This document shows, piece after piece, positions 22,059 through 57,402 of a stretch of 64,000 bases of DNA. The notes below the pieces were generated by a model. That model was not told where the DNA came from. It made no database searches and worked only from the letters and a program-made list of their open reading frames with translations. Within the stretch, counting starts at the first letter, position 1; every line of letters starts with the position of its first letter. Position numbers and translations under genes: made by a program. The stretch is from Candidatus Nomurabacteria bacterium (GTDB taxonomy: Bacteria; Patescibacteriota; Minisyncoccia; Phycocordibacterales; UBA9973): the NCBI GenBank assembly GCA_023898605.1, contig CP060230.1, forward strand, positions 530,444 through 594,443, in the 5' to 3' direction.

Positions 22059-24140
22059 ATGATAAAAAGTTTTAGCAAAATAATTCTTATATTCTCAATA
22101 CTATTTTTGTTTGGATTTAGTAAGTCTTTTGCTGGGACAGGGGACAATGTTACCGGTTGGGCGTGGTCTTCCAACATAGGTTGGATATCTTTCAACTGTG
22201 TTACAGATAGCTCTTGTGATGCCGGGACACTTTTTGATGATCCTGGAGCAGATGGGACACTCGAAGGTCCTGGCGGAGACACTATTCCAGGAACAGAAGA
22301 CACAGGAGGAACAGATGCTGGAACAGGATTTATAGAAAATTCTTGGAGGATGCTTGTTAATAAAACTATAGAGTCTTTCGATACTGCTTTTGTTTCACCT
22401 ACATATAAAATATACAAAAAACTCTCTTATCTTATAAAAGATACTCTTTCTCCAGAGACTATATACGCAGATGATCTAGATGGGATTTCTCCTCCTGGAG
22501 TTGATTATGGAGTAAACATAGATCCTCTGACAGGAAGTATGTCTGGTTATGCATGGAGTGAAAATATAGGTTGGATTTCTTTCAACGAATCTTCAGGATG
22601 CCCCGGAGAAGGTATTTGTAGTCCTAGTATGGACCTTGGAACTGGCGCACTAAAAGGTTGGGCAAAGGCAATAAACGGAAACACATCTGACGACGGTTGG
22701 GATGGGTGGATCTCTCTTTCTTGTAAGAACCACGATTTGGTTATTTGTTTTCCAAGCTACAAGGTTAAGTTTGATCTTGGAACAGGTGCAACAAGCGGTA
22801 CAGATAGATGGGCATGGGGAAGCGATGTTATAGGATGGGTATATTTTGGAGATGTTGTTGTTGATCTACCTCAGCCAACACTTTCTCTCGTTGCTACTCC
22901 AAATATTGTTTCTGCTGGCGGATCTACTTCACTTTCTTGGACATCTACAAGTACTACTTCTTGTAGCGCATCTTCTTCTGACGCACTTTGGACCGGTACA
23001 AAACCTACAAACTCTATAGCACCGGAGTCAGTTATACCTTCTGGCGATATCGTCCTTACAGATGAGTTTGGAGATATACACTATTACACAAAATATGTGA
23101 TGGATTGCGATACAACAACAGGTGAACCGATTTCTTCAGAAGAATATGTAGAAGTTATATACGAAGATGGTGTTTCAGCTGGAAGTTTGGTTCTACAAGC
23201 ATCTCCAACAATTGCTTCTGGTGACAACGGATACAAAGTAAAACTTACTTGGTATTCTCCTACAGCTACAACACTCACATCTTGTGTTGCAAACTCTTAC
23301 TCTATAGCAACTGGAACAGACGTCCCTCTAACTGGAACTGGCTGGACAGGACCACAAACATCACTAACAGCTACAAACTCTTACACCGCAAGTACTCCGG
23401 GTGAAACTATATTTGTTCCAGAAAATCCGACAAAATACTCTATAACTTGTGAAGATGTTCTTGCTAGCGAAAGCGTAACTGCAACAACCGTTGTACCTAG
23501 AGTTCTAGCGGTGCCGAGTGTAGATATATTTGCATCGAGTCCGTCTGGAACACCTGGATCATACAACGTTGATCTTTCTTGGGAACCACTAAACGTGACT
23601 TCATGTACTGCTTCTAACGAAGATGGAATATCTGGTTGGTCTGGACCAAAGTCTGCGCTACCTGGTCTCAATACTCAAAGTGACGTTAGTCTTTCTGACG
23701 GAGGGACAACTTATACCATTACTTGCTCTGGTGCTTATGGTTCTGCGAGTGATTCTGTAACAGTGTTCCCGCCTTCTGATCCTGGAGATGACGGAGATAC
23801 TTCATGTACAGATTGTTTCCCAGCTGATGGACCTGCTGTTGCGCTAACATATGCTGATTTTATTCCTGGAGTATTGGTTCCTGGATCTGTGACACTTATC
23901 TGGAAAACACAAGACGTTGTTTCTTGCGAAGCTTCTTCTACTGATACTCTCTGGACTGGGCCAAAAGCTGCAACTCCAGATGGAATATATACAGAGGTAG
24001 GGGTGCTCTATACATCACCGTTTGAAGATTACACAATTACATGTATAGGCGACGACGACTCAACAGTTTCTGACACGCTTAAGCTCAACGATTCTTCACC
24101 GAAAAACCCAATTGTAAGACCGACTTGGATAGAGTTTTAA
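22059..24140 (+). CDS. Large secreted repeat protein (G(W/Y)AWS.NIGWISFN repeats, then four ~90-aa LSW..SC.AS..W.GPK modules)
   Basis: Signal peptide. GWAWSSNIGWISFNC, GYAWSENIGWISFNE and WAWGSDVIGWVYFGD. Repeated LSWTSTS..SCSAS / LTWYSP..SCVAN / LSWEPLNVTSCTAS / LIWKTQDVVSCEAS modules. Confidence 0.65.
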   Translation: MIKSFSKIILIFSILFLFGFSKSFAGTGDNVTGWAWSSNIGWISFNCVTDSSCDAGTLFDDPGADGTLEGPGGDTIPGTEDTGGTDAGTGFIENSWRMLVNKTIESFDTAFVSPTYKIYKKLSYLIKDTLSPETIYADDLDGISPPGVDYGVNIDPLTGSMSGYAWSENIGWISFNESSGCPGEGICSPSMDLGTGALKGWAKAINGNTSDDGWDGWISLSCKNHDLVICFPSYKVKFDLGTGATSGTDRWAWGSDVIGWVYFGDVVVDLPQPTLSLVATPNIVSAGGSTSLSWTSTSTTSCSASSSDALWTGTKPTNSIAPESVIPSGDIVLTDEFGDIHYYTKYVMDCDTTTGEPISSEEYVEVIYEDGVSAGSLVLQASPTIASGDNGYKVKLTWYSPTATTLTSCVANSYSIATGTDVPLTGTGWTGPQTSLTATNSYTASTPGETIFVPENPTKYSITCEDVLASESVTATTVVPRVLAVPSVDIFASSPSGTPGSYNVDLSWEPLNVTSCTASNEDGISGWSGPKSALPGLNTQSDVSLSDGGTTYTITCSGAYGSASDSVTVFPPSDPGDDGDTSCTDCFPADGPAVALTYADFIPGVLVPGSVTLIWKTQDVVSCEASSTDTLWTGPKAATPDGIYTEVGVLYTSPFEDYTITCIGDDDSTVSDTLKLNDSSPKNPIVRPTWIEF

Positions 24141-24160: not shown

Positions 24161-24883
24161 ATGAAAACAAATCTAGAAACAAAAATAAAAACACTGATAC
24201 TTTCTGCAATATTTATATCTGCTATTGGTGTTGTTGGCGCAGAAGATTTCGGTGTTTGGAACTATCCAGCCTGTGGCGGTGGAGAATGTAACACTCCAGG
24301 ACTTGTAAATGAGTCTGTTACATCACAAGGAAAAGAAGGTGATCTATATGTAGTGGCTGACGAGGATATTCCTTCTTCTTCTGGTGAAATTTATGCAGAC
24401 AGAATCGGTATATGGGGAGACTCTTTCTTGTTTGGTAGTCTAGATATAGGTGATGGAACAGAACCGTCTTCTCTTAGTGTTTTGGGAGACGTAACCCTTC
24501 ATGACAAAAGATCAGCAAACCCTCTAAATGCAGGAGTAACATATCCAGCTGACATATGTGTAGATTCAGATGGTAAAACTGTTATATGTACTGGTGATAC
24601 TGATACTGGTTTTGACCCAGAAACTTTTTCTATGCATGACTATACAACTATAGTTGAGACCGGGCTTGTAGAGGGAAACAATGTTGTTGCAACTTGTCCA
24701 GCTAGTCATCCGAATCTTATAGGTGGCGGAGGATATTGTTCATCGACAGGACTCGGAACAAGTGAGACAGTCATGAAAAGTATCCCTTATAAGAATACCG
24801 GTAGTCCAACATATAACGCATGGATGACAGACTGCGAAAACACAAATGACACTACAACTTCGTATGCAATATGTTCAATATAA
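24161..24883 (+). CDS. Secreted Cys-containing protein, paralog 1 of 3 (C..HP..IGGGGYC ... YAICSI)
   Basis: Signal/TM N-terminus and shared C-terminal motifs with the next two genes. Confidence 0.55.
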   Translation: MKTNLETKIKTLILSAIFISAIGVVGAEDFGVWNYPACGGGECNTPGLVNESVTSQGKEGDLYVVADEDIPSSSGEIYADRIGIWGDSFLFGSLDIGDGTEPSSLSVLGDVTLHDKRSANPLNAGVTYPADICVDSDGKTVICTGDTDTGFDPETFSMHDYTTIVETGLVEGNNVVATCPASHPNLIGGGGYCSSTGLGTSETVMKSIPYKNTGSPTYNAWMTDCENTNDTTTSYAICSI

Positions 24884-24885
24884 AT

Positions 24886-25596
24886 ATGAAAAATAACCTA
24901 AAGAAAAACATAAAAATAATCTCTATTGCCCTTGTTGCCGCTTTGGGTTATTCTCTATTTGCTAGTGCGTGGTCTATACCTACAGGATATCCTCCATACA
25001 GTAACAAATCTAATCCTATAAATAGTCTAAACTCTGATCAGTATAAATATGCGAACCTTTCTATTTTCGACGACACAACAACAGCTGCGATAGAGGGTTC
25101 ACTAGTTGCCGATAGATTTGAAATATTTGGTTCAGATTTTGGACCAAGCGTATTTTTCGATGCAGTAAATATAGGTCATCCAGCAATAACAACAAGTCTT
25201 GATGCGTCACTCTATATAAAAGAAAATGCTAGTATGTCTGTAACTTCACTAGACGAGGGTGTTCTAGGGGTAAACACAGACGGAGTTATGGTCACAAGAC
25301 CAAACGAGGTTGGAGATCCAGTGTTTTATAGTGCGGGTTCGACAATGACAGTAGTTTATAAAGATTTTGATACAAATAACCCGTATATGGTTTGTCCGGT
25401 AGATTATCCATATATAATCGGTGGTGGAGGATACTGTACTGGGGACGGGCTAACATCTGAAAAAATACAAAAATCAATCCCAGACTCTTTGGGCGGAAAT
25501 GTAGACGGTATAGATCATTTAGAGTACACAAACTGGGGGTTTGGATGTAAGGGTATAGGTGACAATGGTCGTATATATGCGATATGTTCAAAATAG
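24886..25596 (+). CDS. Secreted Cys-containing protein, paralog 2 of 3
   Basis: CPVDYPYIIGGGGYCTGDGL ... YAICSK. The start is taken at MKNNLKK. Confidence 0.55.
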   Translation: MKNNLKKNIKIISIALVAALGYSLFASAWSIPTGYPPYSNKSNPINSLNSDQYKYANLSIFDDTTTAAIEGSLVADRFEIFGSDFGPSVFFDAVNIGHPAITTSLDASLYIKENASMSVTSLDEGVLGVNTDGVMVTRPNEVGDPVFYSAGSTMTVVYKDFDTNNPYMVCPVDYPYIIGGGGYCTGDGLTSEKIQKSIPDSLGGNVDGIDHLEYTNWGFGCKGIGDNGRIYAICSK

Positions 25597-25598
25597 TT

Positions 25599-26327
25599 AT
25601 GAATAAAATAAACAATAAAAAAGAAATATTGAGTTTGGTAGCAGTGACTTTTGTTATTGCGATTGTTGCTGGTATAGGATCATTTGTTTCTGCATGGTCA
25701 GAACCGGGAAGTGGTTGTAACCCTCCTTCTTGTGATACTGTTTCACCGATAGACGTGAAAAATATTTCTAATAATAAATCAGGAAGAATTTTTATCCAAG
25801 ACAACACTGCAACTGGTGGAGTAGAAGAAGGTCAGGTTTCAGCTGACAGAATATATACATGGGAAGATGGATCCGTTATAAAAGGCGACACTCTTATAGG
25901 TGTGGCTGGTATAACTGGAGTTACTCCAAATTTGTTTGTAAAAAAAGATTTAGTTTTTGATCCTTATAATGAATATAATAGCCCTGGAGTATTTCCAAAA
26001 AATCTTTGTATAAATAGTACCGGAGAGATTGTCACATGTGATGCAATCCCAGAAGGTGAGGATCCGTTCTACTCATATTCTAGAGATATAACTATAGTTC
26101 ACCCCACAAGTGCACTAACCTCTGATGACAGGACAGCATATTGTCCAGCAACACACCCATATGTGATTGGTGGAGGTGGAGAGTGTTATCCAGACGGACT
26201 ATTTGATCAAAAAGGAATAAAAAGACTCGAACCTATAAAAAGTGGCGCAGCTTACTACAATGCATTCAAGATAGAATGTAGAGCCACAACATCGGAAATA
26301 GAAGTTTACGCAATCTGTTCAAAATAA
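25599..26327 (+). CDS. Secreted Cys-containing protein, paralog 3 of 3
   Basis: CPATHPYVIGGGGECYPDGL ... YAICSK. The start is taken at MNKINNKK. Confidence 0.55.
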   Translation: MNKINNKKEILSLVAVTFVIAIVAGIGSFVSAWSEPGSGCNPPSCDTVSPIDVKNISNNKSGRIFIQDNTATGGVEEGQVSADRIYTWEDGSVIKGDTLIGVAGITGVTPNLFVKKDLVFDPYNEYNSPGVFPKNLCINSTGEIVTCDAIPEGEDPFYSYSRDITIVHPTSALTSDDRTAYCPATHPYVIGGGGECYPDGLFDQKGIKRLEPIKSGAAYYNAFKIECRATTSEIEVYAICSK

Positions 26328-26332
26328 TTATA

Positions 26333-26366
26333 AAAAAAAGAGTCCCCGAGTAGTCGGGGACTTTTA
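26333..26366. terminator. Bidirectional terminator (AGTCCCCGAGTAGTCGGGGACT + T-run)
   Basis: Lies between convergent genes. Confidence 0.6.
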
Positions 26367-28703: not shown

Positions 28704-30455
28704 ATGCGCATAAAAGATGCAGACCTAAAAAGATTCATACTAGATTCAGGACTTCTTTCTGAGAAAGATCTAAAAGCCGCCGAGGGAATCGCAAAAGAAA
28801 AAGAAATAACTCTGAATGAAGCACTTCTAACTCAAGGCAAAATCTCCGAAAATAATCTAAGAAGGATGCAAGCATATGTTTTGGGTATACCTTTTGTTTC
28901 TCTTGTTGGTCAAAAGGTTGATTTCAAGATTCTTTCTATGATTCCGGAGCCGATTGCTAGAAAGAACAACATAATCGCCTACAAAAAATCTGGCGAAGAA
29001 CTAGAAGTGGCTATGCTAGACACAGATGAGCTTCCAGTTATCGACTTTGTTAGGAAAAAGACTGGCCTAAAGATTGTTCCCAGGCTTAGTGATGAAGCAT
29101 CTATCAAGGACGCACTTTTGCAATACAAAAAATCTCTAAAGGCAGAGTTCGACGACATCATCCAAAAAGAAGCGATGTCACTAAAAGCAATCAAAGAAGA
29201 CGCTGGTGACGATGTTTCAGAAAAAGATTTGAAAGAAATGGCGGAAGATCTACCTATCGTCAAAATCGTCGACACGCTCATTTCTCACGCGATTTTGCAA
29301 GGAGCGTCTGACATACACATAGAACCAGGAGAATACGAGCTCGTTGTTAGATATAGAATAGACGGTATCCTTCACGATGCAATGAAACTTCCAAAAGAGT
29401 CTGCTGCAGGTATAACTGCAAGAATAAAAGTTCTTTCGAACTTGAAACTAGACGAGAAGAGACTTCCGCAAGACGGAAGATTCAAGATAAACACTGATGA
29501 CCAAAAAGTTTCTTTCCGTGTATCTACACTTCCTACTTACTTTGGAGAGAAAACCGTTATGCGTCTTTTGAGAGAGTCTAGTAAGGGATTTACTCTAGAG
29601 GGTCTTGGATTCCATGGACTTGGTCTTGAGAGAATACACGAAGGTATGAAGCAACACACAGGGATGCTTCTTGCTGCCGGTCCAACTGGTTCTGGTAAAA
29701 CCACAACACTATATACAATGCTCGACATGCTAAACACTCCCGACGTAAACATTTCGACAGTAGAAGACCCTATCGAGTATCAGATGCCGAGAATCAACCA
29801 AACTCAAGTAAAGTCTGAAATTGGTATGACATTTGCAAACGGACTTCGTGCGCTTTTGAGACAAGACCCAGACATAATCATGGTGGGTGAGATTCGAGAT
29901 GGAGAAACAGCTTCTTTGGGTATCAACGCATCTTTGACAGGACACCTTGTGCTTTCAACTATCCACACAAACTCTGCTGCTGGTGCCGTGCCGAGACTTA
30001 TAGACATGGGAGCGGAGTCTTTTTTGATCGTTTCTACTCTAAAAACTGTTATTGCTCAGAGACTTGTTAGAAGACTTTGCCAAGACAAAGAAAAATATAT
30101 ACCTTCAAAAGAAGAACTTGCTGCAGTTTCGAAAATAGCAAATCTAGATAGGATTCTAGAGGTTCTAAAAGAAGAAAAGATAGTTGGTGAAAAAGATGAT
30201 TGGACAACTATACCGTTTTATAGAGCCAAAGAGTCTGGCGAGTGCCCAGATGGATATAGTGGCCGAGTCGGAATACACGAAATACTTAAAATAAGCCCAG
30301 CTATAAAAGAAATAATAATAAAAGACGGGTCACCTGACGAGATAGAAGCCAAGGCAAAAGAAGAGGGCATGATAACAATGTTAGAAGACGGTGTAGTCAA
30401 AGCTGCTCAAGGTATAACTTCTCTAGAAGAAGTTCTAAGAGTTGTTTCAGAATAA
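28704..30455 (+). CDS. pilB: Type IV pilus assembly ATPase PilB/GspE family
   Basis: Walker A GPTGSGKTTT and the GspE N-terminal domain. Confidence 0.9.
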   Translation: MRIKDADLKRFILDSGLLSEKDLKAAEGIAKEKEITLNEALLTQGKISENNLRRMQAYVLGIPFVSLVGQKVDFKILSMIPEPIARKNNIIAYKKSGEELEVAMLDTDELPVIDFVRKKTGLKIVPRLSDEASIKDALLQYKKSLKAEFDDIIQKEAMSLKAIKEDAGDDVSEKDLKEMAEDLPIVKIVDTLISHAILQGASDIHIEPGEYELVVRYRIDGILHDAMKLPKESAAGITARIKVLSNLKLDEKRLPQDGRFKINTDDQKVSFRVSTLPTYFGEKTVMRLLRESSKGFTLEGLGFHGLGLERIHEGMKQHTGMLLAAGPTGSGKTTTLYTMLDMLNTPDVNISTVEDPIEYQMPRINQTQVKSEIGMTFANGLRALLRQDPDIIMVGEIRDGETASLGINASLTGHLVLSTIHTNSAAGAVPRLIDMGAESFLIVSTLKTVIAQRLVRRLCQDKEKYIPSKEELAAVSKIANLDRILEVLKEEKIVGEKDDWTTIPFYRAKESGECPDGYSGRVGIHEILKISPAIKEIIIKDGSPDEIEAKAKEEGMITMLEDGVVKAAQGITSLEEVLRVVSE

Positions 30456-31677
30456 AAATATGAATTTTAATTACGAAGGAATCACAAAAGATAAAGGAAG
30501 AGTAAAAGGGACAATAGAGTCTCCAGATAAGTTCAATGCCGCAAAAGATCTCCGAGAGAAGGGAATAACAGTGCTTTCTCTTGAACCAAAATCTGAAAAG
30601 AAGGGGTCTTCTATCCTAGACCTTCTTCCTTTTGGAAAAATAAAACTAGCTGAAAAAATACTTTTCACCAGAAACCTTTCTGGGATGATTTCTGCCGGAC
30701 TTTCTCTGTCTAGAGCACTTCAGGTTTTAGAAAAGCAAACAGAAAATAAAAAAATGAGAGAAGTTTTGAGATTTCTTATAGATGAAATAGATAAGGGAGG
30801 TACACTTTCTGACGGTATGGCAAAAAATCCAAAAGTTTTCTCAGCGATTTTTGTCTCTATGGTTAGAGCAGGTGAAGAGTCTGGAGCACTTTCCAATGCA
30901 CTAAAAGAAGTTGGACTAAACCTTCAGAAGGCTTATGACCTAAACAAAAAAGTAAAAGGTGCGATGACGTATCCATCTATTATTTTGGGGGCAATAGTTT
31001 TGGTTGGAGTTTTGATGATGATATTTGTTGTACCCTCTATTACAAAAACTTTCGTCGAGCTTGGAATTGATCTTCCCACATCAACACAGTTCATCATATT
31101 TATGAGTGAACTCTTCCAAAACTACGCGATATTTGTGTTTATGGGATTGGGTCTAGTTGTTTTTGGAGTTATGTATTTTGTAAAAAGAACACCAAAACTT
31201 AAAAAGATTTTTCATAAAATCATATTGAAGATACCTGTCATAGGTCTTATCGCAAGACAGGTCAATTCCGCCAGAACAACCAGAACCATGTCCTCTCTTC
31301 TTTCTGCTGGTGTTTCTGTTACAAAAGCTTTGGAGATTACAAAAGAGGTTCTTCAAAATACAGAGTTTAAAAACGTTATAGACGAATCAATTGCTTCTGT
31401 TCAGAAGGGTGTAGCTTTGTCAGAAGTTTTCAAAAAGTATCCAAAACTTTATCCCGTCATGGTTAGTGAAATGATGGAAGTTGGAGAAGAAACAGGAAAC
31501 TTTGCTTCTATGCTTATGGACATAGCTGTTTTCTACGAAGAAGAAGTAGATGCCAAGACAAAAAACCTTTCAACAATTATCGAACCTGTTCTTATGATAT
31601 TTATTGGTGGAGCTGTGGGGTTCTTTGCACTATCTATGATAACTCCTATGTATTCCATTTTGGACACAATCGGTTAA
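30442..31677 (+). CDS. pilC: Type IV pilus assembly platform protein PilC/GspF family
   Basis: Two GspF repeats and multi-TM topology. The likely start is MNFNYEG. Confidence 0.85.
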   Translation: MFQNKNMNFNYEGITKDKGRVKGTIESPDKFNAAKDLREKGITVLSLEPKSEKKGSSILDLLPFGKIKLAEKILFTRNLSGMISAGLSLSRALQVLEKQTENKKMREVLRFLIDEIDKGGTLSDGMAKNPKVFSAIFVSMVRAGEESGALSNALKEVGLNLQKAYDLNKKVKGAMTYPSIILGAIVLVGVLMMIFVVPSITKTFVELGIDLPTSTQFIIFMSELFQNYAIFVFMGLGLVVFGVMYFVKRTPKLKKIFHKIILKIPVIGLIARQVNSARTTRTMSSLLSAGVSVTKALEITKEVLQNTEFKNVIDESIASVQKGVALSEVFKKYPKLYPVMVSEMMEVGEETGNFASMLMDIAVFYEEEVDAKTKNLSTIIEPVLMIFIGGAVGFFALSMITPMYSILDTIG

Positions 31678-31687
31678 AATTAGAATA

Positions 31688-33499
31688 ATGGTTTTTAACC
31701 AAAAAAATAAAAAGTTTTATAGCAAAGGAACGACTTTGATTGAAACGCTTATTGCCGTCGCTTTTTTTGTTGGTGTTTCGACTGCAATCTACGGTGTGTA
31801 TGGAAAAATACTAGAACTTACTCGCGTTGCTAGAATGCGAGATATTATCGCGACTACAGCAAATGAATATATAGAAATAATCAGAAATCTTCCTTATGCC
31901 GATGTTGGTGTAGAGGGTGGAGTTCCAGACGGGGTCATACCCTACCAGCAAAATATAACCAGAAATGGTTACACTATGAGAATACAGACTTTTATAGAAA
32001 ATGTTGATCAAGATTTTGACGGAACTGTTGGTGGTACTCCAAACGACGACATGCCAGCTGACGCAAAACTTGTCGAGATAAGGGTTCAGTGTATAGAATG
32101 TGATACTTATTACAATACGATGGCTTTTACAGCACTTATTTCTCCTAAAAATATGGAGTTTGATACAAACAGTGGAGCGCTTTACGTGTATGTCATAGAT
32201 GCCAATGGTGACCCTCTCCCAAATATAGATTTAGATATAGATAATGCTTCAGAGTCTATAAGTATAAACGATCAAACTGGGGCCGATGGTGTGTACAAGG
32301 TTATAGGTGCACCATCTGGAACAAGAAAATATAGAATACAGGCCACGAAATCCGGGTATACTTTCGACAGTACGTATCTAAAGTCAAACCTTGGCGGCTC
32401 TACTCCGGTTCTTCCACACGCCTCTGTAATTGATCAAGAAATTACATCTATAACAATGGTTGTAGACAGGGTCAGTAACATACAGTTTTCATCTGTTGAT
32501 GAAGACTGCAACGCTATTGGTGCTTTTGACTTTCAACTTACGGGTGAAAAACTTTTGGGTACTAATCCGACATATTTGAAATATAATCAATCTCTCGTTA
32601 CAAACGCCTCTGGGATAAAAAATCTTTCAAATGTTGAGTGGGACACATATTCTGTTACTTCTATAGACTCTGTATATGACCTTATAGGATCAAACCCTCT
32701 TCTCGAGTTTTCTGTCTCACCAAACTCTACTCAAAGTATGCAATTGGTAGTAGCACCAAAAGATCAGCCTACACTACTAGTTAGTGTAAAAGATGGAAGT
32801 ACTGGCCTTGCACTTTCTGACGTAACGGTAGATATAGACGACGGTGCGGGTTATACGGACAGTGCTATAACTGGTAAGGGATCAAAGAGTCAGACAGACT
32901 GGTCTGGTTCTTCTGGTGTGGCTACCTCTGTTCCAGATGGAGTAGATTACTTTTCTTCAGACAGCAACTTGGAACTTAGAAGTCCAGAAGGTGATATGAA
33001 ACTAAGATATCAAGGTGGAGTGTATCTATCTTCTGGTTATCTTATTTCTTCTACTTATGATACTGGTTCCGCAAGTAATTTTAGTGAAATAACATGGAAC
33101 CCATATACTCAGCCAGCTGAAGCTGGGGCGGCAAGTAGTGTTAGATTCCAGATAGCTACAAACAATGACTATACAACTTGGAATTTCTTGGGACCAGATG
33201 GAACAAACGCCACTTACTATACATATGGAGATCAAGCGATCTCTTCCGTACACAACGGGGATAGATATTTGAGATATAAAGTTTATCTATCTACTGACAA
33301 TACTGCTTATACGCCGACAGTTTCTGATATAGGTTTTACATATACAACTAACTGTACACCTCCTGGACAAGTAGTCTTCCAAAGTATTCCAACTGGAAAT
33401 TACACGATAACTTCATCCAAGACTGACTATAATACTGACATATTATCTTTTACAGTTGGTTCGACGTGGCAACAAGCAGAAGTAACACTTACAGAATAA
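31688..33499 (+). CDS. Giant prepilin-type protein (N-terminal GTTLIETLIAVAF methylation motif)
   Basis: Class III signal-like N-terminus, then a ~570-aa extracellular region. Confidence 0.6.
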   Translation: MVFNQKNKKFYSKGTTLIETLIAVAFFVGVSTAIYGVYGKILELTRVARMRDIIATTANEYIEIIRNLPYADVGVEGGVPDGVIPYQQNITRNGYTMRIQTFIENVDQDFDGTVGGTPNDDMPADAKLVEIRVQCIECDTYYNTMAFTALISPKNMEFDTNSGALYVYVIDANGDPLPNIDLDIDNASESISINDQTGADGVYKVIGAPSGTRKYRIQATKSGYTFDSTYLKSNLGGSTPVLPHASVIDQEITSITMVVDRVSNIQFSSVDEDCNAIGAFDFQLTGEKLLGTNPTYLKYNQSLVTNASGIKNLSNVEWDTYSVTSIDSVYDLIGSNPLLEFSVSPNSTQSMQLVVAPKDQPTLLVSVKDGSTGLALSDVTVDIDDGAGYTDSAITGKGSKSQTDWSGSSGVATSVPDGVDYFSSDSNLELRSPEGDMKLRYQGGVYLSSGYLISSTYDTGSASNFSEITWNPYTQPAEAGAASSVRFQIATNNDYTTWNFLGPDGTNATYYTYGDQAISSVHNGDRYLRYKVYLSTDNTAYTPTVSDIGFTYTTNCTPPGQVVFQSIPTGNYTITSSKTDYNTDILSFTVGSTWQQAEVTLTE

Positions 33500-33500
33500 T

Positions 33501-34115
33501 ATGAAAAGAGTTCACAATAAAAATTTACAAAAAGGTTTTACGTTGGCAGAAACAATTGTGACCTTGGCGGTTGTAGGTCTTATTGTTGCCAGTGTTGCGG
33601 CTTTCCAAGCAAACGTTTTCTCTTTCACTAGAACATTTAATGCTGGGCTTAGTGCGGCAGATCATGCAAGAAGGGTACTCAAGCCTATTTCCAACGAACT
33701 TCGCGCAGCAGAAACTTCTGAAGTTGGTAATTATGCTATTTCAGAAGGAACAGCCACTTCGGTTACTTTCTTCTCAGATATAGATTCTGATGATGTTGCA
33801 GAAATGGTCAGATATTATCTGGATGGTACTGATATAAAAAAAGAAGTTACTGAACCAGCTGAAAACCCATATGATTATAACAGTGGAACAACAGAGACAA
33901 TTACTATAATAAGAGGTGTGACAAATAGTGATATATTTTATTATTATGATACAGATTATGACGGAACAACTAGCGCGCTTACTTTTCCTATAACTGTTAC
34001 AGATGCGAGACTTATAAAAATAAGCTTAACAATAGACGAAGATCCTCAGAAAGATCCACCACCATTATCAATAGTTACAGAGGTTTCTTTTAGAAACTTG
34101 AAAGATAATTATTAA
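33501..34115 (+). CDS. Prepilin-type (pseudopilin) protein (GFTLAETIVTLAVVGLIV)
   Basis: Canonical G-F-T-L-x-E N-terminus. Confidence 0.6.
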   Translation: MKRVHNKNLQKGFTLAETIVTLAVVGLIVASVAAFQANVFSFTRTFNAGLSAADHARRVLKPISNELRAAETSEVGNYAISEGTATSVTFFSDIDSDDVAEMVRYYLDGTDIKKEVTEPAENPYDYNSGTTETITIIRGVTNSDIFYYYDTDYDGTTSALTFPITVTDARLIKISLTIDEDPQKDPPPLSIVTEVSFRNLKDNY

Positions 34116-34120
34116 TCTTT

Positions 34121-35602
34121 ATGAAATTGATTAACTCAAAAAATAAAAAAGGATCTCTTCTCTTAGGCGTTGTATTTTTTTCTGCTATTTCTATATCGCT
34201 TGTCACTGCTTTTATAGGGTGGTCAGTTTCTCTTTCTAGGGTTTCAAATACTGTTCTAGACAAAGAACAAGCTTTTCAAATAGCCGACGCAGGAATCGAT
34301 TATTATAGATGGCACTTAGCCCATGACCCAGATGATTTTCAAGATGGTACAGGTACATCTGGACCATATGTTCATGTTTTTTATAACAGAAACGATATAG
34401 CAATAGGCGAGTTTAGTTTAGATATAACTGCTCCCTCAGAAGGGTCAAATCTTGTAACAATAACTTCTACTGGTTCTATATATGATAATCCAGATGCAAC
34501 AAGATCAATTCAGGCAAAACTCGCTATACCTTCTTTTGCGCAGTGGGCTGTTGTTTCCAATGATAATTTGAAGTTTGATGAGGGGACAGAAGTTTATGGT
34601 CCGATTCATTCAAATCAGGGAGTTAGAATGGATGGTATTGCATATAACATAGTAACTAGTTCCGTTTCTGATTATGATGACCCAGACCATGATGGTGATA
34701 ATGAATTCGCTGTACACACTCATGTAAAACCACCACCAGAAACAGGTACATATGATGATGCCCTAGGTTCTGTTGCTGCAGAGACACCCCCGGCAACTAT
34801 GGCAGACAGAACAGATGTTTTTTCTGCTGGTAGAGAATTCCCTACAACAACCGCAGATTTTGTTGGCATGAGTGGAGATTTTTCAGAAATGAAAACAGCT
34901 TCTCAGACGAACGGCTCATATCTATCTTCTAGTGGTGCATATGGATATAGAATACAGTTAAAAACTGACGGAACGTATGATTTATATAGAGTTGCAAAAC
35001 TGGTACAGCAAAGCGGGTCTTGTATTGATCCAGGAAACCAAGATGGTTGGGATTTGTGGAGCATAAAAACAACTGGAGGTGAAACGTTTATTGATAATTA
35101 TGACGTGCCAGCTGATGGAATAATCTTTGTTGAAGATGATGTTTGGGTTAGCGGGCAAGTAGATAGATATAGAGTAACTATAGTCGCGGCAACTTTTCCA
35201 GACGTGCCATCAGATAGAAAAAATATAATTATAAATAACGATCTTACTTATACAAATTATGACGGACAAGACGCAATAGGTTTGATAGCTCAAGACAATA
35301 TAAACATAGGACTTAGATCAGCTGACCACCTAAGGATAGACGGAGCTCTTATTGCACAAAATGGAAGAATAGGTAGATATTATTATTCTGATCAGTGTAC
35401 TTCGTATTATGCTCGTGACGAGCTTACACTTTTTGGTGCTATTGCCACATATGGAGCTCATGAGTTTTATTATGATGACGGATCTGGTTATGCCGCCATA
35501 TCTATAAATTACGACTCAAACCTTCTTTATGGACCGCCTCCATATTTTCCTCTTGCAGATGAGGCCTATTCCACAGTTTCTTGGAAAGAAGTCGCAAATT
35601 AG
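34121..35602 (+). CDS. Pilus-associated protein with N-terminal hydrophobic anchor (PilX/minor pilin-like)
   Basis: N-terminal TM and operon context only. Confidence 0.4.
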   Translation: MKLINSKNKKGSLLLGVVFFSAISISLVTAFIGWSVSLSRVSNTVLDKEQAFQIADAGIDYYRWHLAHDPDDFQDGTGTSGPYVHVFYNRNDIAIGEFSLDITAPSEGSNLVTITSTGSIYDNPDATRSIQAKLAIPSFAQWAVVSNDNLKFDEGTEVYGPIHSNQGVRMDGIAYNIVTSSVSDYDDPDHDGDNEFAVHTHVKPPPETGTYDDALGSVAAETPPATMADRTDVFSAGREFPTTTADFVGMSGDFSEMKTASQTNGSYLSSSGAYGYRIQLKTDGTYDLYRVAKLVQQSGSCIDPGNQDGWDLWSIKTTGGETFIDNYDVPADGIIFVEDDVWVSGQVDRYRVTIVAATFPDVPSDRKNIIINNDLTYTNYDGQDAIGLIAQDNINIGLRSADHLRIDGALIAQNGRIGRYYYSDQCTSYYARDELTLFGAIATYGAHEFYYDDGSGYAAISINYDSNLLYGPPPYFPLADEAYSTVSWKEVAN

Positions 35603-50521: not shown

Positions 50522-51046
50522 GTGTCTTTTGTTATGGAGGAGGACTACACAATACAAACATTTGAGTCTATATTTGAGGACTACTCCGATAGTATCTTTA
50601 GGCACTTTGTCTTCAAAATAAGTGATAGAGATCGGTCCAAAGAACTAACTCAAGAAGTATTCATGAGACTCTGGAAGACTATGTCTTCTGGAGAAGCTAT
50701 AGATAATCCAAAGAGCTTTCTTTATAAAATCGCTCACAATCTATATGTAAACGAATACCGAGATAGAAAAAACCATAGATCCCTAGAGGAATCTATGGAA
50801 CAAGGTTTCGACGTAGAAGGAGAAACCGAGCAAGATATATTTGATAACATTTCTACCGAAGAAGTAATCAAGCTGTTCGAAGAACTAAAGCCTTCATATA
50901 GGGAAGTTCTGACCATGAAACTTGTTGATGAATATTCGGTCAAGGAAATTTCTGAAATTTTAGGAGAGACAGAAAACTCTGTTTCCGTAAGACTTCACAG
51001 GGCGATTCAAAAGATAAAAACAATATTAGAAAATCATGACATTTAA
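50522..51046 (+). CDS. ECF-type sigma-70 family RNA polymerase sigma factor
   Basis: Region 2 (FRHFVFKISDRDRSKELTQEVFMRLW) and region 4 HTH (YSVKEISEILGETENSVSVRLHRA). Confidence 0.8.
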   Translation: MSFVMEEDYTIQTFESIFEDYSDSIFRHFVFKISDRDRSKELTQEVFMRLWKTMSSGEAIDNPKSFLYKIAHNLYVNEYRDRKNHRSLEESMEQGFDVEGETEQDIFDNISTEEVIKLFEELKPSYREVLTMKLVDEYSVKEISEILGETENSVSVRLHRAIQKIKTILENHDI

Positions 51047-52528: not shown

Positions 52529-53131
52529 ATGGAGTCAATTTTTCTTATAGCAATAATTATATTTTCTGTAGTTATACATGAAGTCGCCCATGGATATGTG
52601 GCTTATAAACTCGGTGATATGACCGCGTATTATCAGGGGAGACTGACTCTCAATCCTATAAAACATCTAGATATGTTTGGCTCTATTATTTTGCCGGCAC
52701 TCCTTGTTATTAGCGGGACAGGTTTTTTGTTTGGTTGGGCAAAGCCGGTTCCTTATAATCCAAACAACATAAGAGGTAAAAAGGGTGCACTTTTTCTTGT
52801 TTCTGCTGCAGGTATATTTGTGAATCTTACAGTGGCGGTTGTTTTTGCGCTTGTTTTAAAACTTTTTGCAATAATTGGATTAGCCTCTATCGCCATAACA
52901 TATATATTTTCTTCCATTATAATGATCAACATTATTTTGGCAGTTTTCAACCTTATGCCTATTCCTCCACTTGATGGGTCTAAAATACTAGCTTCATTTT
53001 TCGGAGCTAGAGGAGAAATGATTCTTTATAAGTTTGAAAAGTATTCTTTTTTATTGGTTATTGCTTTCGTTATTTTCTTGTGGCCTTTTATTTCTTCTTT
53101 TGTGAGCATAATATTTGATTTTCTTGTATAA
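52529..53131 (+). CDS. Site-2 protease family (M50) membrane metalloprotease
   Basis: HEVAHG HExxH motif within a TM helix. Multi-TM, 200 aa. Confidence 0.7.
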   Translation: MESIFLIAIIIFSVVIHEVAHGYVAYKLGDMTAYYQGRLTLNPIKHLDMFGSIILPALLVISGTGFLFGWAKPVPYNPNNIRGKKGALFLVSAAGIFVNLTVAVVFALVLKLFAIIGLASIAITYIFSSIIMINIILAVFNLMPIPPLDGSKILASFFGARGEMILYKFEKYSFLLVIAFVIFLWPFISSFVSIIFDFLV

Positions 53132-53149
53132 TTTTAGATATAGGAACTT

Positions 53150-54910
53150 ATGTATATTTTTTCTAGAAAAAACTTACTAAAAATTTTTATTCTGACTTGT
53201 TTTATAGCACTGCCTTTTTCGAAAGTTTTTGCAGCAGAAATATACGATGATTACAGGTATGCAGTGATACTGGAAGATAGTAGTCGTATAAATATGAAAA
53301 CCGACTACGGTGTAAATGTTTACAATAGCTCTGTTACCGGTTATGCATGGAGTGAAAATTATGGATGGATAAACTTCGATCCTTCTGGTGATGAGGGTGT
53401 AGAAAACAACAACGGAACACTTCTTGGCTACGCCTGGGGAGAAAATTTAGGATGGATAAACTTTGCTCCAACAAATGGTGGAGTAACAATAGATTCTGAC
53501 GGATATTGGCACGGTTATGCATGGAGCGAGAAAGTTGGATGGATTGCTTTCAACTGTAGCGAATCAACACTCTGTGACACATACAAAGTTAGATCACAGT
53601 GGACATCTAACGGTGCATCTGGCGGCGGCGGAGGTTCATCTGGTGGCGGATCTTCTACTACAACAGAAGAGCCGCCCGTAATACCTCCTACTGTAGAGAA
53701 TCCACCAGTAGATTCTGGAGATACTACTCCTATAAACAACAATGATAATCCTGGAAACGATGGAGACATCTCTAGCCCAGATATAGATACTCCCGTACCA
53801 CCAATTCCTCCTATAGAGGAACCAGATATTCCTCTTCCTACTGAGGACAATGTTCCAGATAACTTCAATCCTTTTTCGGACGCAGTTTTGAGTAGCATTT
53901 CTATACTTGAAGATATAATAATCTCCACACTTTCGCTTGCTGAAAACATAGTGTCTTCTCCAGAAGGAGATACAACTGTAAAAATAGTAACAACTCTAGG
54001 TATTATCTTTGCAGGTATTTCTTCTATGATATCTGTAATGTTTGCCAACCCTCTATCTATATCTGAGATAGTTTTGATACCAGTTAGACTTTGGTCACTT
54101 CTTTTGACTGCTCTTGGTATAAGAAAGAAAAACAAACCTTGGGGTGTTGTATATGATGCTGTAACAAAGCAACCACTAGACCCGGTTTACGTTACTCTTT
54201 TTGACGAGATGAATAGCGAAGTTGGGAGCACTATAACTGATATTGACGGTAGATACGGATTCTTTGTTAGTCGTGGTAGATACAGAGTAGTACCTGGTAA
54301 AACTCACTATAGTTTTCCGTCTAGTCTTATGGCCGGCAAAGACAAAGACGAACTTTATAACGATATATATCACGGAGAAATTTTTGAAATCACAAGTGAT
54401 GAATCTATTATTACAAAAAACATTCCTATGGATCCAGTTGGTTTTGACTGGAATGAATATGCAAAGAGTCAAAAAAATCTGAATCTATTCTACTCTAGAA
54501 TGGATAAATTCTTGGCAGTATTTTCAGACGTGTTGTTTGTTCTAGGTTTTGCTATTTCTATAATTGCTACAACCGTTTCTCCTGTTTTGTATAACATAAT
54601 CATAATGTCTCTATACGTAGTCATGCTATTTTTGAAAGAAACTGTTTTGAGACCAAAACCACAAGGAAGAATAATTTTTGGAGGTGAACCACTTGCTTTT
54701 GCTATTGTAAAAGTTTATGACGCAAACACCGGCATGATGATTGGTAAAAAACCTACAAATAAAAATGGAGCATTCTATCTACTAGTAGGAAAGGGAACAT
54801 ATTACTTAACTATCGACAAAAAACTAGATGACGGTACTTATCAAGAAGTACACAAAACAAGCAGTTTTGAGGCAAAAACTGGTTATATAGACCAAAAAAT
54901 ATCTTTTTAA
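53150..54910 (+). CDS. Surface/membrane protein with three GYAWSEN.GWI.F repeats, a Gly/Ser/Pro-rich linker, TM segments and a carboxypeptidase-regulatory-like beta-sandwich domain
   Basis: GYAWSENYGWINFDPS, GYAWGENLGWINFAPT and GYAWSEKVGWIAFNCS. DGRYGF and KNGAFYLLVGKGTYYLTI motifs lie near the C-terminus. Confidence 0.6.
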   Translation: MYIFSRKNLLKIFILTCFIALPFSKVFAAEIYDDYRYAVILEDSSRINMKTDYGVNVYNSSVTGYAWSENYGWINFDPSGDEGVENNNGTLLGYAWGENLGWINFAPTNGGVTIDSDGYWHGYAWSEKVGWIAFNCSESTLCDTYKVRSQWTSNGASGGGGGSSGGGSSTTTEEPPVIPPTVENPPVDSGDTTPINNNDNPGNDGDISSPDIDTPVPPIPPIEEPDIPLPTEDNVPDNFNPFSDAVLSSISILEDIIISTLSLAENIVSSPEGDTTVKIVTTLGIIFAGISSMISVMFANPLSISEIVLIPVRLWSLLLTALGIRKKNKPWGVVYDAVTKQPLDPVYVTLFDEMNSEVGSTITDIDGRYGFFVSRGRYRVVPGKTHYSFPSSLMAGKDKDELYNDIYHGEIFEITSDESIITKNIPMDPVGFDWNEYAKSQKNLNLFYSRMDKFLAVFSDVLFVLGFAISIIATTVSPVLYNIIIMSLYVVMLFLKETVLRPKPQGRIIFGGEPLAFAIVKVYDANTGMMIGKKPTNKNGAFYLLVGKGTYYLTIDKKLDDGTYQEVHKTSSFEAKTGYIDQKISF

Positions 54911-54970
54911 GAACTTAACTGTTAAAAACTAATTTTTCTGTTATTTTGACACTAATTTTGGTGTTACAAT

Positions 54971-56875
54971 ATGTGTATGTTTAGAAGAGCAAAGATTTTT
55001 GTAACGCTACTTATGATAGGGTTCTTTTGTTTTGCTGTGTACTCTTCTTATGCAACTCCTCCTTCTTCAAAATATACTGCAGGGGAAACTCTAAACCCAA
55101 CTTGTTCTCCGGGAGATACAAATTGTAGCGTCGTACCTCTAAGCATAGGAGACGAAATAGGTTCTTCTACAAGTGGCTCTATACTTTTTGCGGATTCTTC
55201 TGGTAATCTTGCTCAAGATAACTCTAAACTTTTCTGGGATGATACAAATAACAGATTTGGTATCGGAACAACTACTCCAAGTTTTGAGATATCAGTTGTC
55301 GACGCTACTTCTGATGGAGTTATAAATATAGATGCATATGCTGGTAAAAAACCAGTCTTTGGTGGTAGATCAGTAAACGGTACAACCGCTTCGCCAAGTA
55401 ATACACTTCAAAACGATATAATCGCAGAGTTTGCAGGTGCTGGTTATGGAGACACTGGATTTTCTGCTTCTTCTACTGGCTCAATTAGAATGATCGCCGC
55501 AGAAGACTTCGATGATTCTTCTTTTGGAACAAATATCTCTTTTAGAACAACAAACATAGGTTCTACATCACTTACTGCCAAGGCAATAATTACATCAGAA
55601 GGTTTATTTGGTATAGGAACAGAATCTCCGAGCGCGGTTCTGGATTTTGGCGGCTTATTTTCTCCAAGTACTACGTTTCAAACTATTCGTACAAACAACA
55701 CAATCCAACCGACAACTAGCATCTCAAACATATTTGCTATAAATAACAACATGAACATAGCCGGCTCTGCTTCGGGGATAACTTTGACAAACCTTATCGC
55801 CAACAGATCGACTATAAACACTTCTGGTTCTTGGACTGGCACTGTTGGAAGTATGTATAACTTTTATGCAAACAACGGAACAAATTCTTCTTCTGGCTCA
55901 CCAACTATAAACACTTACTACGGCTTCTATACAGAAGACCTGACTATAGGTACAAGCAACTTTGGTTTTGTTGGAGAAGTTTCTTCTGGTGGAAACAAGT
56001 GGAACCTATATATGTCTGGAACTGCTGACAATTATTTGGCGGGGGATACTGGTATCGGGGATTCGACACCGGACTATCTTCTAGATGTAGAAAATGCATC
56101 GGTAGACACCGACTTGTTTTCTCTGCGAGACTCTGACGGTGCTTGTCTACACAATCCAGAGTCTGGAGCCGAAACAGTAAGTTGTTCTTCTGATGAAAGA
56201 CTAAAGACAAATATAGAAGATGCAGACTCCGTACTTTCTTCTCTCCGAAAATACAGGATAAGAGAATATGATGTTATTGCTTCGGGTGATCACCTTGTGG
56301 GAATTATTGCGCAAGAAGCTCTCAAAACTCATCCAGAAATAGTAAATCTTGGTCCAGACGGATACTATACTGTTGACCTCCCAAACTCTTGGACACTAGT
56401 AAAAGCAATACAAGAATTGGATCAAGAAATCACAGATATCAATTCTTTCGACATAGAAACAAAAGGAAGTTTTTATAACACTTTGGTTTCTTGGCTTGGT
56501 GATAGAGCAAATGGTATTGCAGAAATATTTTCAAAGAAACTTGTTACAGAAGAACTTTGTCTGGAAGATGTTTGTATCGACAAGAATGACCTAAAGAATC
56601 TCCTAGAAAAAAATAGTGGAAGTAACACTGTTATATACGTAGGCGGAGGATCATCTTCTGGTGGTAATGAAGAAGAGAGCGATGTAGAAGATGGCGAAGG
56701 AGAAGTTTTGGGTGAAGAAATAGACAATATAGAGGAAGAGGCAGTAGAAGATGGAGCAGTAGAAGACGAAGTCATAGAGGAAGAGCCTATAGAAGAAGTT
56801 ATAGAGGAGTTACCGGTAGTAGAGGAGGAAATACCAGTAGAGTTCGAAGAGCCAACCTCTCCAGAAGGTGAATAA
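54971..56875 (+). CDS. Tail-fibre-like secreted protein with C-terminal peptidase S74 intramolecular-chaperone autoprocessing domain and acidic tail
   Basis: SDERLKTNIEDADSVLSSLRKYRIREYDV ... GIIAQEALKTHPEIV matches the S74/endosialidase chaperone domain motifs. N-terminal signal/TM. Confidence 0.55.
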   Translation: MCMFRRAKIFVTLLMIGFFCFAVYSSYATPPSSKYTAGETLNPTCSPGDTNCSVVPLSIGDEIGSSTSGSILFADSSGNLAQDNSKLFWDDTNNRFGIGTTTPSFEISVVDATSDGVINIDAYAGKKPVFGGRSVNGTTASPSNTLQNDIIAEFAGAGYGDTGFSASSTGSIRMIAAEDFDDSSFGTNISFRTTNIGSTSLTAKAIITSEGLFGIGTESPSAVLDFGGLFSPSTTFQTIRTNNTIQPTTSISNIFAINNNMNIAGSASGITLTNLIANRSTINTSGSWTGTVGSMYNFYANNGTNSSSGSPTINTYYGFYTEDLTIGTSNFGFVGEVSSGGNKWNLYMSGTADNYLAGDTGIGDSTPDYLLDVENASVDTDLFSLRDSDGACLHNPESGAETVSCSSDERLKTNIEDADSVLSSLRKYRIREYDVIASGDHLVGIIAQEALKTHPEIVNLGPDGYYTVDLPNSWTLVKAIQELDQEITDINSFDIETKGSFYNTLVSWLGDRANGIAEIFSKKLVTEELCLEDVCIDKNDLKNLLEKNSGSNTVIYVGGGSSSGGNEEESDVEDGEGEVLGEEIDNIEEEAVEDGAVEDEVIEEEPIEEVIEELPVVEEEIPVEFEEPTSPEGE

Positions 56876-56969
56876 GCCTTATTCTTTCAGGTTTTGCTTG
56901 CAAAAAATATAGATATATAGTAGAGTATCTCGGACGTGGCTTTAAGTGGTCCCGTTTTTTAGATTAAAT

Positions 56970-57389
56970 ATGCCGACAATAAATCAGCTAATAAAAAAGA
57001 ACAGAAAATCAAAGACTAAGAAGTCAAAATCTCCTACACTAAGTAGGGGTTTTAACCACATCAAAAACAAGCCAGTTTTCTACCCAGCACCATTCAAAAG
57101 AGGTGTTTGTTCAAAAGTTACAACAACTACTCCTAAAAAGCCTAACTCAGCGCTTCGAAAAATCGCCAGAGTAAGACTAACAAATGGACAAGAAGTTACA
57201 GCTTATATTCCAGGAGAAGGACACAACCTACAAGAACACTCAGTTGTTGCTATAAGAGGAGGTAGAGTAAAAGACCTTATCGGTGTGAGATATCACGTAG
57301 TTAGAGGTGTATTTGACACAACAGGTATAGAAAAGAGAAGAAAAGGAAGAAGCCGATACGGTGCTAAAAGACCTAAGAAAGACAAATAA
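56970..57389 (+). CDS. rpsL: 30S ribosomal protein S12
   Basis: PTINQLIKK...KSPAL...[10 protein letters not shown]. The start is at ATG 56970. Confidence 0.9.
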
Positions 57390-57402
57390 TATTTAGATAG
57401 AT

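Follow-up and report, generated by a model that had tools for sequence, protein, structure and literature searches.

An unnamed beta-repeat domain at the N-terminus of two otherwise unrelated surface proteins of Patescibacteria, a candidate extracellular binding head

A 64-kb stretch of a Candidatus Nomurabacteria genome (contig CP060230.1, positions 530,444 to 594,443; in the following, the window), which has a GC content of 36.6% and a gene content of the Patescibacteria type, encodes two large surface proteins with a common repeat, i.e., protein A (open reading frame [ORF] 22059-24140, + strand, 693 aa) and protein B (ORF 53150-54910, + strand, 586 aa), the namesakes of families A and B. 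The motif of this repeat, GYAWSENIGWISF, is the signature of a real, widespread, and unnamed extracellular all-beta repeat domain, in which three to four units and a cap make up one compact domain. Situated directly behind a Sec signal peptide, the domain would form the N-terminal head of the mature protein and is therefore referred to as the head. The domain itself, its boundaries, repeat structure, distribution, and contexts can be regarded as very well established. That the head binds a conserved ligand and has no catalytic role is a reading in which we infer the extracellular site, the binding, and the ligand, and to which we assign a probability of about one half. Patescibacteria represent a large share of bacterial diversity, and their surface proteome is mostly unannotated. 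A domain that occurs in thousands of protein clusters and caps two position-conserved surface proteins, and that is without a name, a structure, or a literature of its own, merits a family definition and a structure determination.

An earlier note on this DNA had reported the repeat as a common feature of two surface proteins. Both ORFs proved to be real, the quoted peptides are present, and the repeat is a true domain rather than low-complexity sequence. Within the window, the motif is confined to proteins A and B, where it represents the core of a beta-repeat unit of 29 to 43 aa; the strict pattern [GW][YWF]AW[SG] occurred five times in a six-frame translation of all 64 kb, always within the two ORFs, and the sixth copy quoted in the earlier note, RWAWGSDVIGWVYF, is one residue longer than this pattern. 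A hidden Markov model (HMM) built from family-B heads of other genomes retrieved protein B with an E value of 3.6e-49 and protein A with 1.2e-13, and no other ORF of the window scored better than about 0.4. A BLASTP comparison of A and B was significant in the head only (E=8e-08; residues 149-237 of A versus 52-148 of B), with nothing alignable outside. The head-restricted BLASTP match and the cross-family HMM match are thus indicative of true homology. The shortness of the motif as first quoted might have pointed to a chance or low-complexity similarity, but this explanation is refuted by the cross-family HMM and a confident fold prediction and is likewise at odds with the BLASTP result, the 7,926 clusters described below, and the restriction of the motif to two ORFs, so that it can be considered practically excluded.

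The repeat unit follows the pattern G[YW]AW[SG]ExxGWIxF(N/D)-loop-(Y)GVxI(D/N)-xxxG-x-(L/F)-S and comprises about 29 aa in protein B and 28 to 43 aa in protein A (Table 1). The repeat of protein B is a regular 29 aa long (unit HMM consensus, GYAWGENYGWINFNPTNGGVCNDTSGKLS). Its three units are preceded by a cap, conserved as xGTIDxTxxxA...INF...VxVTD and modeled as the long strand 2-13 with a predicted local distance difference test score (pLDDT) of 96, and they are followed by a closing C..C...KV.T.W segment. AlphaFold2 modeling of the repeat region, a check proposed in the earlier note, resulted for the B head (91-sequence alignment) in a confident all-beta structure with 13 short strands and no helix (mean pLDDT, 90.4; predicted template modeling score, 0.82). 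The invariant positions of the B head, in the numbering of the modeled fragment, include G37, G45, W46, I47, G66, A68, W69, W75, N77, F78, G95, W98, G103, and W104.

For protein A, three copies of the repeat had originally been counted; these three stand, but the head consists of four units, because a degenerate third one, which is conserved across the family, had been overlooked. Its stretch GWAKAINGNTSDDGWDGWISLSC (residues 200-222) reads GWAKA...GWDGWISL and corresponds to the family consensus GWAxAL..GWDGWIxL (GWARAL in the alignment), in which G177 and W178 (numbering of the modeled fragment) are invariant and W191, D192, G193, W194, and I195 are nearly so. The consensus of unit 4 is GxAWGSDVVGWISF, with fragment residues G236 and W237 being invariant. 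In the AlphaFold2 model of the A fragment, units 1, 2, and 4 mostly reach pLDDT values of 76 to 94, and unit 3 is patchier, with values down to about 65. Unit 1 is separated from units 2 to 4 by a 96-aa insertion, a feature that the rest of the family does not have and that is largely (residues 73-136) predicted to be disordered (pLDDT of <50 at fragment residues 50-113).

Units ending with ...FNC are followed by a second cysteine six to eight residues further on (see Table 1 for the individual pairs), and the cysteine pair behind the repeat is invariant throughout family B. Each head directly follows the only hydrophobic segment of the N-terminus, which bears an AxA-like site; in family-A relatives, an AxA-type site (VQA/VQS) precedes the first repeat by five to eight residues. 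Signal peptide and cysteine pairs would fit a secreted, disulfide-stabilized head. The previous impression that both proteins are extracellular is consistent with these signal peptides, the paired cysteines after the repeats, and the Ig and PKD partner domains of relatives.

Table 1. Coordinates of the features of proteins A and B and of their neighbors in the window (a caret marks the predicted cleavage site; i-E, independent E value)
Feature	Residues	Positions	Strand	Basis and remarks
Protein A, signal peptide (...SKSFA^GTG)	1-25	22059..22133	+	Single N-terminal hydrophobic segment; cleavage site predicted by eye
Protein A, unit 1, GTGDNVTGWAWSSNIGWISFNCVTDSSC	26-53	22134..22217	+	Motif scan; unit HMM domain i-E=2e-09; beta hairpin in AlphaFold2 model; Cys47/Cys53 pair
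Protein A, lineage-specific insertion, D/G/T-rich, then short helices	54-149	22218..22505	+	Composition; absent from family consensus
Protein A, unit 2, YGVNIDPLTGSMSGYAWSENIGWISFNESSGCPGEGIC...	150-192	22506..22634	+	Motif scan; unit HMM i-E=2.4e-08; BLASTP to B from residue 52; Cys181/187
Protein A, unit 3, degenerate, ...GWAKAINGNTSDDGWDGWISLSC...	193-233	22635..22757	+	Family consensus; beta strands in AlphaFold2 model; Cys222/230
Protein A, unit 4, YKVKF..RWAWGSDVIGWVYFGD	234-272	22758..22874	+	Family consensus; model strands 221-231 and 236-239 (fragment)
Protein A, four putative Ig-like modules	273-680	22875..24098	+	Regular expression; cores 294-315, 398-433, 508-531, 615-636
Protein A, conserved C-terminal tail, PIVRPTWIEF		24108..24137	+	Family motif P-x-[WYF]-x-E-[IFV](-x-P-F)
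Type IV pilus-like cluster downstream of A		28704..35602	+	PilB/T2SSE, PilC/T2SSF, three pilin-like proteins
Peptidase_M50 (site-2 protease-like)		52529..53131	+	ORF 18 nt upstream of B; Pfam label from orthologous neighbors in L088 and L090
Protein B, signal peptide (...SKVFA^AEIY)	1-28	53150..53233	+	Hydrophobic segment 9-27; cleavage predicted
Protein B, N-terminal cap or degenerate unit 0, AEIYDDYRYAVILEDSSRINMKTDYGVNVYNSSVT	29-63	53234..53338	+	Family conservation; model
Protein B, unit 1	64-92	53339..53425	+	Motif scan; unit HMM i-E=7.8e-13; model strands
Protein B, unit 2	93-121	53426..53512	+	Motif scan; unit HMM i-E=1.7e-16
Protein B, unit 3 and closing strand, GYAWSEKVGWIAFNCSESTLCDTYKVRSQWT	122-152	53513..53605	+	Motif scan; unit HMM i-E=4.1e-12; invariant C136/C142, W151
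Protein B, Gly/Ser- and then Pro-rich stalk	153-240	53606..53869	+	Composition
Protein B, membrane module	241-586	53870..54907	+	Pfam; hydropathy; many invariant columns across 36 sequences
Peptidase_S74 (intramolecular chaperone) fibre-like protein		54971..56875	+	Pfam PF13884, E=3e-07

Database searches placed the two proteins in separate large families. The A head as a query retrieved more than 1,000 proteins, typically of about 400 aa, from Paceibacteria-type Patescibacteria (labeled Pacebacteria, Nealson-, Giovannoni-, Kaiser-, and Yanofskybacteria), whose usual layout is a signal peptide, four units, Ig_Rha78A_N (PF25788), and PKD (PF18911/PF00801). Protein A, which is also present on NCBI assembly GCA_020428735.1 and on Logan contigs from SRR14234112 and SRR14234116, belongs to this family on account of its signal peptide, the four head units that start within about eight residues behind it and include the degenerate third one, and its C-terminal tail (...RPTWIEF). 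With 693 aa and a body without any Pfam match, it does not conform to the typical Ig_Rha78A_N-PKD body and is an atypical long member, the best relative of which (locus L008) has 687 aa. Full-length protein B retrieved 960 proteins, and the head was found at the same N-terminal position in 118 of the best 120; many members of family B are 37 to 48% identical to protein B over 91 to 100% of the length. Protein B exhibits the layout of its family, i.e., the cap and three 29-aa units at about residues 30-150, a variable linker, and a conserved C-terminal module with the motifs PWGxVYD and DxDGRYGF; invariant columns abound in the head and the membrane module. In family A, conservation is limited to the head; in family B, the membrane module is the only other conserved block. 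Existing annotations, i.e., "PKD domain-containing" and "carboxypeptidase regulatory-like domain-containing," cover just the bodies and leave the head unannotated.

A pattern scan of the GTDB species genomes with tblastn confirmation revealed at least 516 head loci, and the 80 listed ones stem essentially all from metagenome-assembled genomes (MAGs) of Patescibacteria. A family-A gene on the 4.6-kb contig MEQJ01000026.1 (L062), binned as "Bdellovibrionales bacterium RIFOXYD1_FULL_53_11," is probably located on a mis-binned Patescibacteria contig. The profile search and the survey of the distribution that had been suggested for the motif were carried out as an exhaustive hmmsearch of a head-only profile (A3, 127 positions) against 1.84 billion cluster representatives (50%-identity clusters), which matched 7,926 clusters at E<=1e-3, 4,567 at 1e-10, and 701 at 1e-30 and showed that the head occurs in Patescibacteria as well as in carriers from outside this Candidate Phyla Radiation (CPR) lineage. 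The top scorers do not resemble CPR proteins: they are 500 to 3,269 aa long, contain four to eight matched stretches each, and include a [quoted passage not shown] a "PD40 domain-containing protein," a "MopE-related protein," and a hypothetical protein of Ca. Methylomirabilis. In these non-CPR carriers, the repeat also starts straight after the signal peptide (...A^ENIDP..YAWGENVGWLNLEP), a second block often follows 270 to 350 residues further on, and the partner domains comprise MopE, TSP3, PD40, Big_13/6/9, cadherin, Lcl_C, CHB_HEX_C, Peptidase_C13, dockerin, and CarboxypepD_reg. A definition of the head would immediately benefit the annotation of over 7,900 clusters, among them giant adhesin-like proteins from MAGs whose bins are labeled Desulfobacterales and Ca. 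Methylomirabilis; with about 125 aa, the head is also a compact, confidently modeled target for structural and binding studies.

The broad distribution of the head bears on a reading without any external ligand, according to which it is a structural, oligomerization, or export cap that nucleates folding or multimerization (the heads of A and B might associate) or is recognized during export. The strict location right after the signal-peptide cleavage site, the conservation of the mature N-terminus (ENIDP or GTID) across phyla, the tolerance of almost any downstream domain, and invariant residues (G, A, W, I, F) of a kind expected for core packing would all agree with such a cap. However, the second and third repeat blocks 270 to 350 residues into some proteins demonstrate that the N-terminal place is not obligatory, and the domain is common to monoderm-like CPR bacteria and diderm lineages with different export routes. 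A mere cap is therefore judged to be very unlikely; even so, it would be a new building block of secreted bacterial proteins.

The statement of the earlier note that the motif maps to no named family was borne out by the searches. Pfam-A and NCBIfam models, applied to A, B, and six neighbors, returned nothing on the repeat region at E<=1, and 33 heads produced only noise against Pfam at E<=10; recurrent weak matches to ATP-gua_Ptrans, DUF1269, and PnpCD_PnpD_N were judged to be spurious. No match to protein A, protein B, or the head profile was found among the PDB sequences. Foldseek searches of the PDB with both models identified no significant neighbor (best E=0.27, for FABP5 and pallilysin with a template modeling score [TM] of about 0.3; next, hemophilin with E=0.42 and a TM of 0.23-0.27), and head B had no match in BFVD. 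Based on the confident model, the head corresponds significantly to no lectin, carbohydrate-binding module (CBM), beta-propeller, beta-prism, beta-trefoil, or lipocalin fold. FABP/lipocalin-like proteins, pallilysin Tp0751, and hemophilin HphA are, like the heads, antiparallel beta meanders of similar size, but a kinship was rejected in view of E values of 0.27 to 0.7, TM values of 0.23 to 0.38, root mean square deviations of 3.5 to 8 Å, the lack of sequence similarity, and the absence of internal repeats from these proteins. Exact motif strings matched nothing but noise of the type "yaws en..." in 8 million searchable papers, and a CPR-specific literature search yielded nothing on family A or B.

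Choline-binding repeats (CW_binding_1, PF01473) are of the GW..G.WYY type. Like the head, they and related glucan-binding repeats are short, aromatic and glycine-rich beta-hairpin repeats with variable fused domains, and they bind a conserved envelope polymer. Their units are, however, about 20 aa long and form long solenoid arrays with a usually C-terminal location, compared to 29 to 43 aa per unit in the head; PF01473 had no match at E<=10 in the 33 heads, and Foldseek revealed no similarity to a solved choline-binding domain. In SLH (PF00395), the repeats form a compact domain that anchors proteins via a conserved polymer of the wall (PMC5817068). SLH shares with the head the arrangement of three N-terminal tandem repeats on unrelated secreted proteins, i.e., a conserved head on a variable body, but it is helical with about 55 aa per repeat, in contrast to the all-beta head, and displays neither sequence nor fold similarity. 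ChW (PF07538) is implicated in non-covalent surface anchoring via an unidentified ligand, with triplets having been suggested as the arrangement (PMC5817068, PMC6700490). ChW repeats resemble the head in being extracellular tandem repeats on an invariant GW that occur in small sets and are fused to many bodies, and ChW is the only named repeat with faint matches (2/33 heads, best E=0.002), with proteins A and B themselves showing none at E<=1. The ChW unit of about 50 aa contains one GW, whereas the head unit of 29 to 43 aa has two Trp-centered strands (AW... and GWIxF); moreover, ChW repeats are known from Firmicutes and Actinobacteria, where most of them belong to endolysins and the N-terminus is not their typical place, whereas no phage carrier of the head was detected. 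At best, ChW would be a functional analogue, an analogy that speaks for a binding role of the head. The head is best classed among the aromatic beta-repeat surface modules, an already familiar class of object, in which it represents an unnamed domain family without a detectable structural relative.

The bodies behind the heads are unrelated. The four Ig-like modules previously described in protein A were recovered by their core pattern W..(S/T)C.A(S/N)..W(S/T)G(T/P)(K/Q); it is this pattern that suggests the designation Ig-like, Pfam models did not match the body, and relatives possess Ig_Rha78A_N and PKD at the corresponding place. The C-terminal tail of protein A recurs, often with the extension x-P-F, in most of the best 120 family-A matches (e.g., LPKWKEIPPF and PVYEEI, compared to RPTWIEF in protein A). 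Across the 80 genomic loci, it was found in 32 of the 70 ORFs that bear a head, compared to 6 of the remaining 1,265. Protein A is the sole real ORF of the window with a P-x-[WYF]-x-E-[IFV] tail, and a role as a general sorting signal of the genome is thus unsupported. The tail of 7 to 10 residues contains no transmembrane segment and matches no known sorting signal; the characteristics of sortase, PEP-CTERM, and type IX secretion system (T9SS) sorting are missing from protein A, including a Por_Secre_tail match. It may serve as a retention or docking signal. The linker, transmembrane segments, and carboxypeptidase-regulatory-like domain reported for protein B are all present: the stalk is variable in length within the family and houses VWA or Ig insertions in some relatives, hydropathy indicates transmembrane-like segments at about residues 279-297, 304-322, 461-479, and 476-494, and CarboxypepD_reg (PF13620) scored 38.4 bits (cutoff, 32.3) at residues 332-381 and 506-555, i.e., in the body and not in the repeat.

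According to the role that we propose, the head would be a non-catalytic binding module for a conserved ligand, and the variable body would supply anchoring or other functions. The most plausible ligand would be a glycan or else another polymer or filament of the envelope, belonging to the producing cell or to a partner. The head is fused to a secreted stalk of putative Ig-like modules with a tail in family A and to a Pro-rich stalk on a polytopic membrane module in family B. The Gly/Ser/Pro stalk of about 90 residues in B would hold the head off the membrane, and in A it would sit at the end of the Ig-like modules opposite the tail. Several points weigh against a binding head. Binding is entirely our inference, and the invariant Trp, Tyr, Gly, and Ala residues are perhaps purely structural, reflecting core packing of a small beta domain; the binding role is hence put forward as a proposal, and aromatic richness alone is no sign of a glycan site. 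In addition, Pfam, PDB, and Foldseek searches revealed no similarity of the head to a known lectin, CBM, or wall-binding fold, and the gene contexts described below hint at filament partners (pilus and S74 fibre) and not at glycans. Carbohydrate binding is a guess. If the ligand were a host or envelope glycan, the head would provide a handle on cell attachment and envelope organization in CPR bacteria.

In the window, the genes of a 122-aa membrane protein, protein A, and three tandem secreted paralogs (24161-26327, + strand; 240, 241, and 247 aa) follow one another closely, either separated by 1 to 20 nt or overlapping. The paralogs have overlapping starts and stops, share a GGGG(Y/E)C motif and a YAICS(I/K) C-terminus, and match no Pfam or NCBIfam model. 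They were rejected as conserved partners of family A, since relatives were located near only 1, 7, and 1 of 80 loci. The type IV pilus-like cluster further downstream encodes three pilin-like proteins (ORFs 31688-35602) with prepilin N-termini of the type G^(F/T)TL(A/I)ET. One of them (31688-33499, + strand; prepilin-type N-terminus, KGTTLIETLIAV) is very large for a pilin-like protein with its 603 aa and shows a weak CarboxypepD_reg match, i.e., a transthyretin-like domain of the same kind as in the body of protein B. Within 10 kb of the 80 family-A loci, NusA was found 20 times, PilB 17 times, and PilC 14 times, and a recurrent block consists of RNase Y-HU-ClpP-trigger factor-PPase-NusA, a divergent family-A gene, and PilB-PilC-pilins-TIM-PGK. 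Other family-A genes are situated after SecY or in an unrelated context (L007), which rules out an obligate operon with pilus genes.

Protein B is encoded between L28/Peptidase_M50 and rpsL-rpsG-fusA, the position characteristic of its family, with the order L28, Peptidase_M50, B, S74 fibre protein, S12, S7, and EF-G in the window. Comparable orders are M50-S74-B-S12-S7 in L088 and L28-M50-S12-S7-x-B-S74-EF-G in L090. Among 31 metagenomic family-B loci flanked by 3 kb or more on each side, M50 was present upstream in 19 and S12, S7, and EF-G downstream in 20, 19, and 17, respectively, and an S74-like gene adjoined family B on either side in 12. According to these counts, family B is a core gene of conserved position that is frequently accompanied by a fibre gene, and the 18-nt spacing suggests a cotranscription of M50 and B. 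The combination of family B with M50, and often with S74, between rpmB and rpsL-rpsG-fusA (52529-57873 in the window; L088, L090, and L091-L170) is seen in many Patescibacteria; the str region is an unusual place for surface-appendage genes. The expectation that further secreted proteins accompany A and B accordingly holds for S74, a recurrent partner, but not for the triplicated paralogs of the A locus. Similarly, the idea of two related adhesion loci is supported by the shared head and the S74 partner, but not with respect to their relatedness, because A and B are unrelated outside the head and reside in different housekeeping neighborhoods (NusA...PilB versus L28-M50...S12-S7-EF-G).

These neighborhoods would be compatible with a docking of the head to filaments, i.e., to the type IV pilus in the case of A, then a pilus accessory, and to the trimeric S74 fibre in the case of B, which would then form the base of this fibre in the membrane or assist in its assembly. 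The adjacency of the S74 and family-B genes in either order points in this direction, as do the finding that, of the 47 family-A loci with 6 kb or more of downstream sequence, 10 have PilB downstream on the same strand (immediately adjacent in two), the frequency of PilB at family-A compared to family-B loci (17/80 versus 2/80, Fisher p=3e-4), and a prepilin peptidase gene two genes upstream of family A in L004. Yet one and the same head would need to recognize two unrelated filaments, the linkage is incomplete, with pilus genes at about 20% and S74 at about 40% of the loci, and many family-A genes are located elsewhere. Neither A nor B contains a class III prepilin signal (G^(F/T)TLxE), their N-termini being ordinary Sec-type ones, and the partner domains of the non-CPR carriers suggest generic adhesin-like proteins. 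Filament docking is therefore regarded as quite unlikely.

A further reading takes the heads as lectin-like tips that attach an episymbiotic patescibacterium to its host and both loci as attachment loci. Surface appendages mediate host binding in episymbiotic Patescibacteria (PMC11623550), and the position of the head at the distal end of a stalk, the tail-fibre-like S74 protein, and the type IV pilus genes nearby would be in line with a host or partner adhesin. In family A, however, the head is conserved and the body varies, which is the reverse of usual host-range determinants, and both genes belong to a core housekeeping synteny instead of variable islands. The head is also present in non-CPR MAGs (binned as Desulfobacterales and Ca. 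Methylomirabilis), and neither BFVD nor the GenBank phages (tblastn) nor IMG/VR (pattern and tblastn) contained a phage receptor-binding protein or any other viral carrier with it. Such an adhesin is thus considered unlikely. The conservation of the head and its occurrence outside the CPR speak against an adhesin that is host-specific and evolves rapidly, but they leave the binding of a conserved ligand untouched; together with the core synteny, they make a conserved ligand more likely than a variable host receptor.

A more far-reaching version of the conserved-ligand reading would regard the head as a new fold and a common recognition module of the core surface apparatus of Patescibacteria. 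Protein B would be the membrane base of the S74 trimer in the str region, protein A a secreted Ig-stalk protein that is coupled to the type IV pilus locus and retained by its P-x-W-x-E-F tail, and both would grip the same conserved glycan on the host or own envelope in episymbiosis. In this full form, the scenario is rather improbable; if true, it would offer a testable molecular handle on the attachment of Paceibacteria-type CPR cells.

The two loci contain additional conspicuous ORFs. On the opposite strand of the A locus (26364-27692, - strand), a secreted protein of 442 aa carries a Por_Secre_tail (E=5.9e-07; 30.1 bits, with a cutoff of 27), i.e., a T9SS-type sorting domain; a T9SS is not known from Patescibacteria. 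The protein is an orphan whose sole database match is itself, and its GC content of 0.42-0.43 does not mark it as clearly foreign. Just upstream of L28, M50, and B (50522-52199, + strand), an ORF resembling an extracytoplasmic function (ECF)-type sigma factor (174 aa) overlaps the start of a 387-aa protein with a single transmembrane segment, an anti-sigma-like arrangement; the pair is not a conserved companion of family B, as it was seen in just one of 80 loci.

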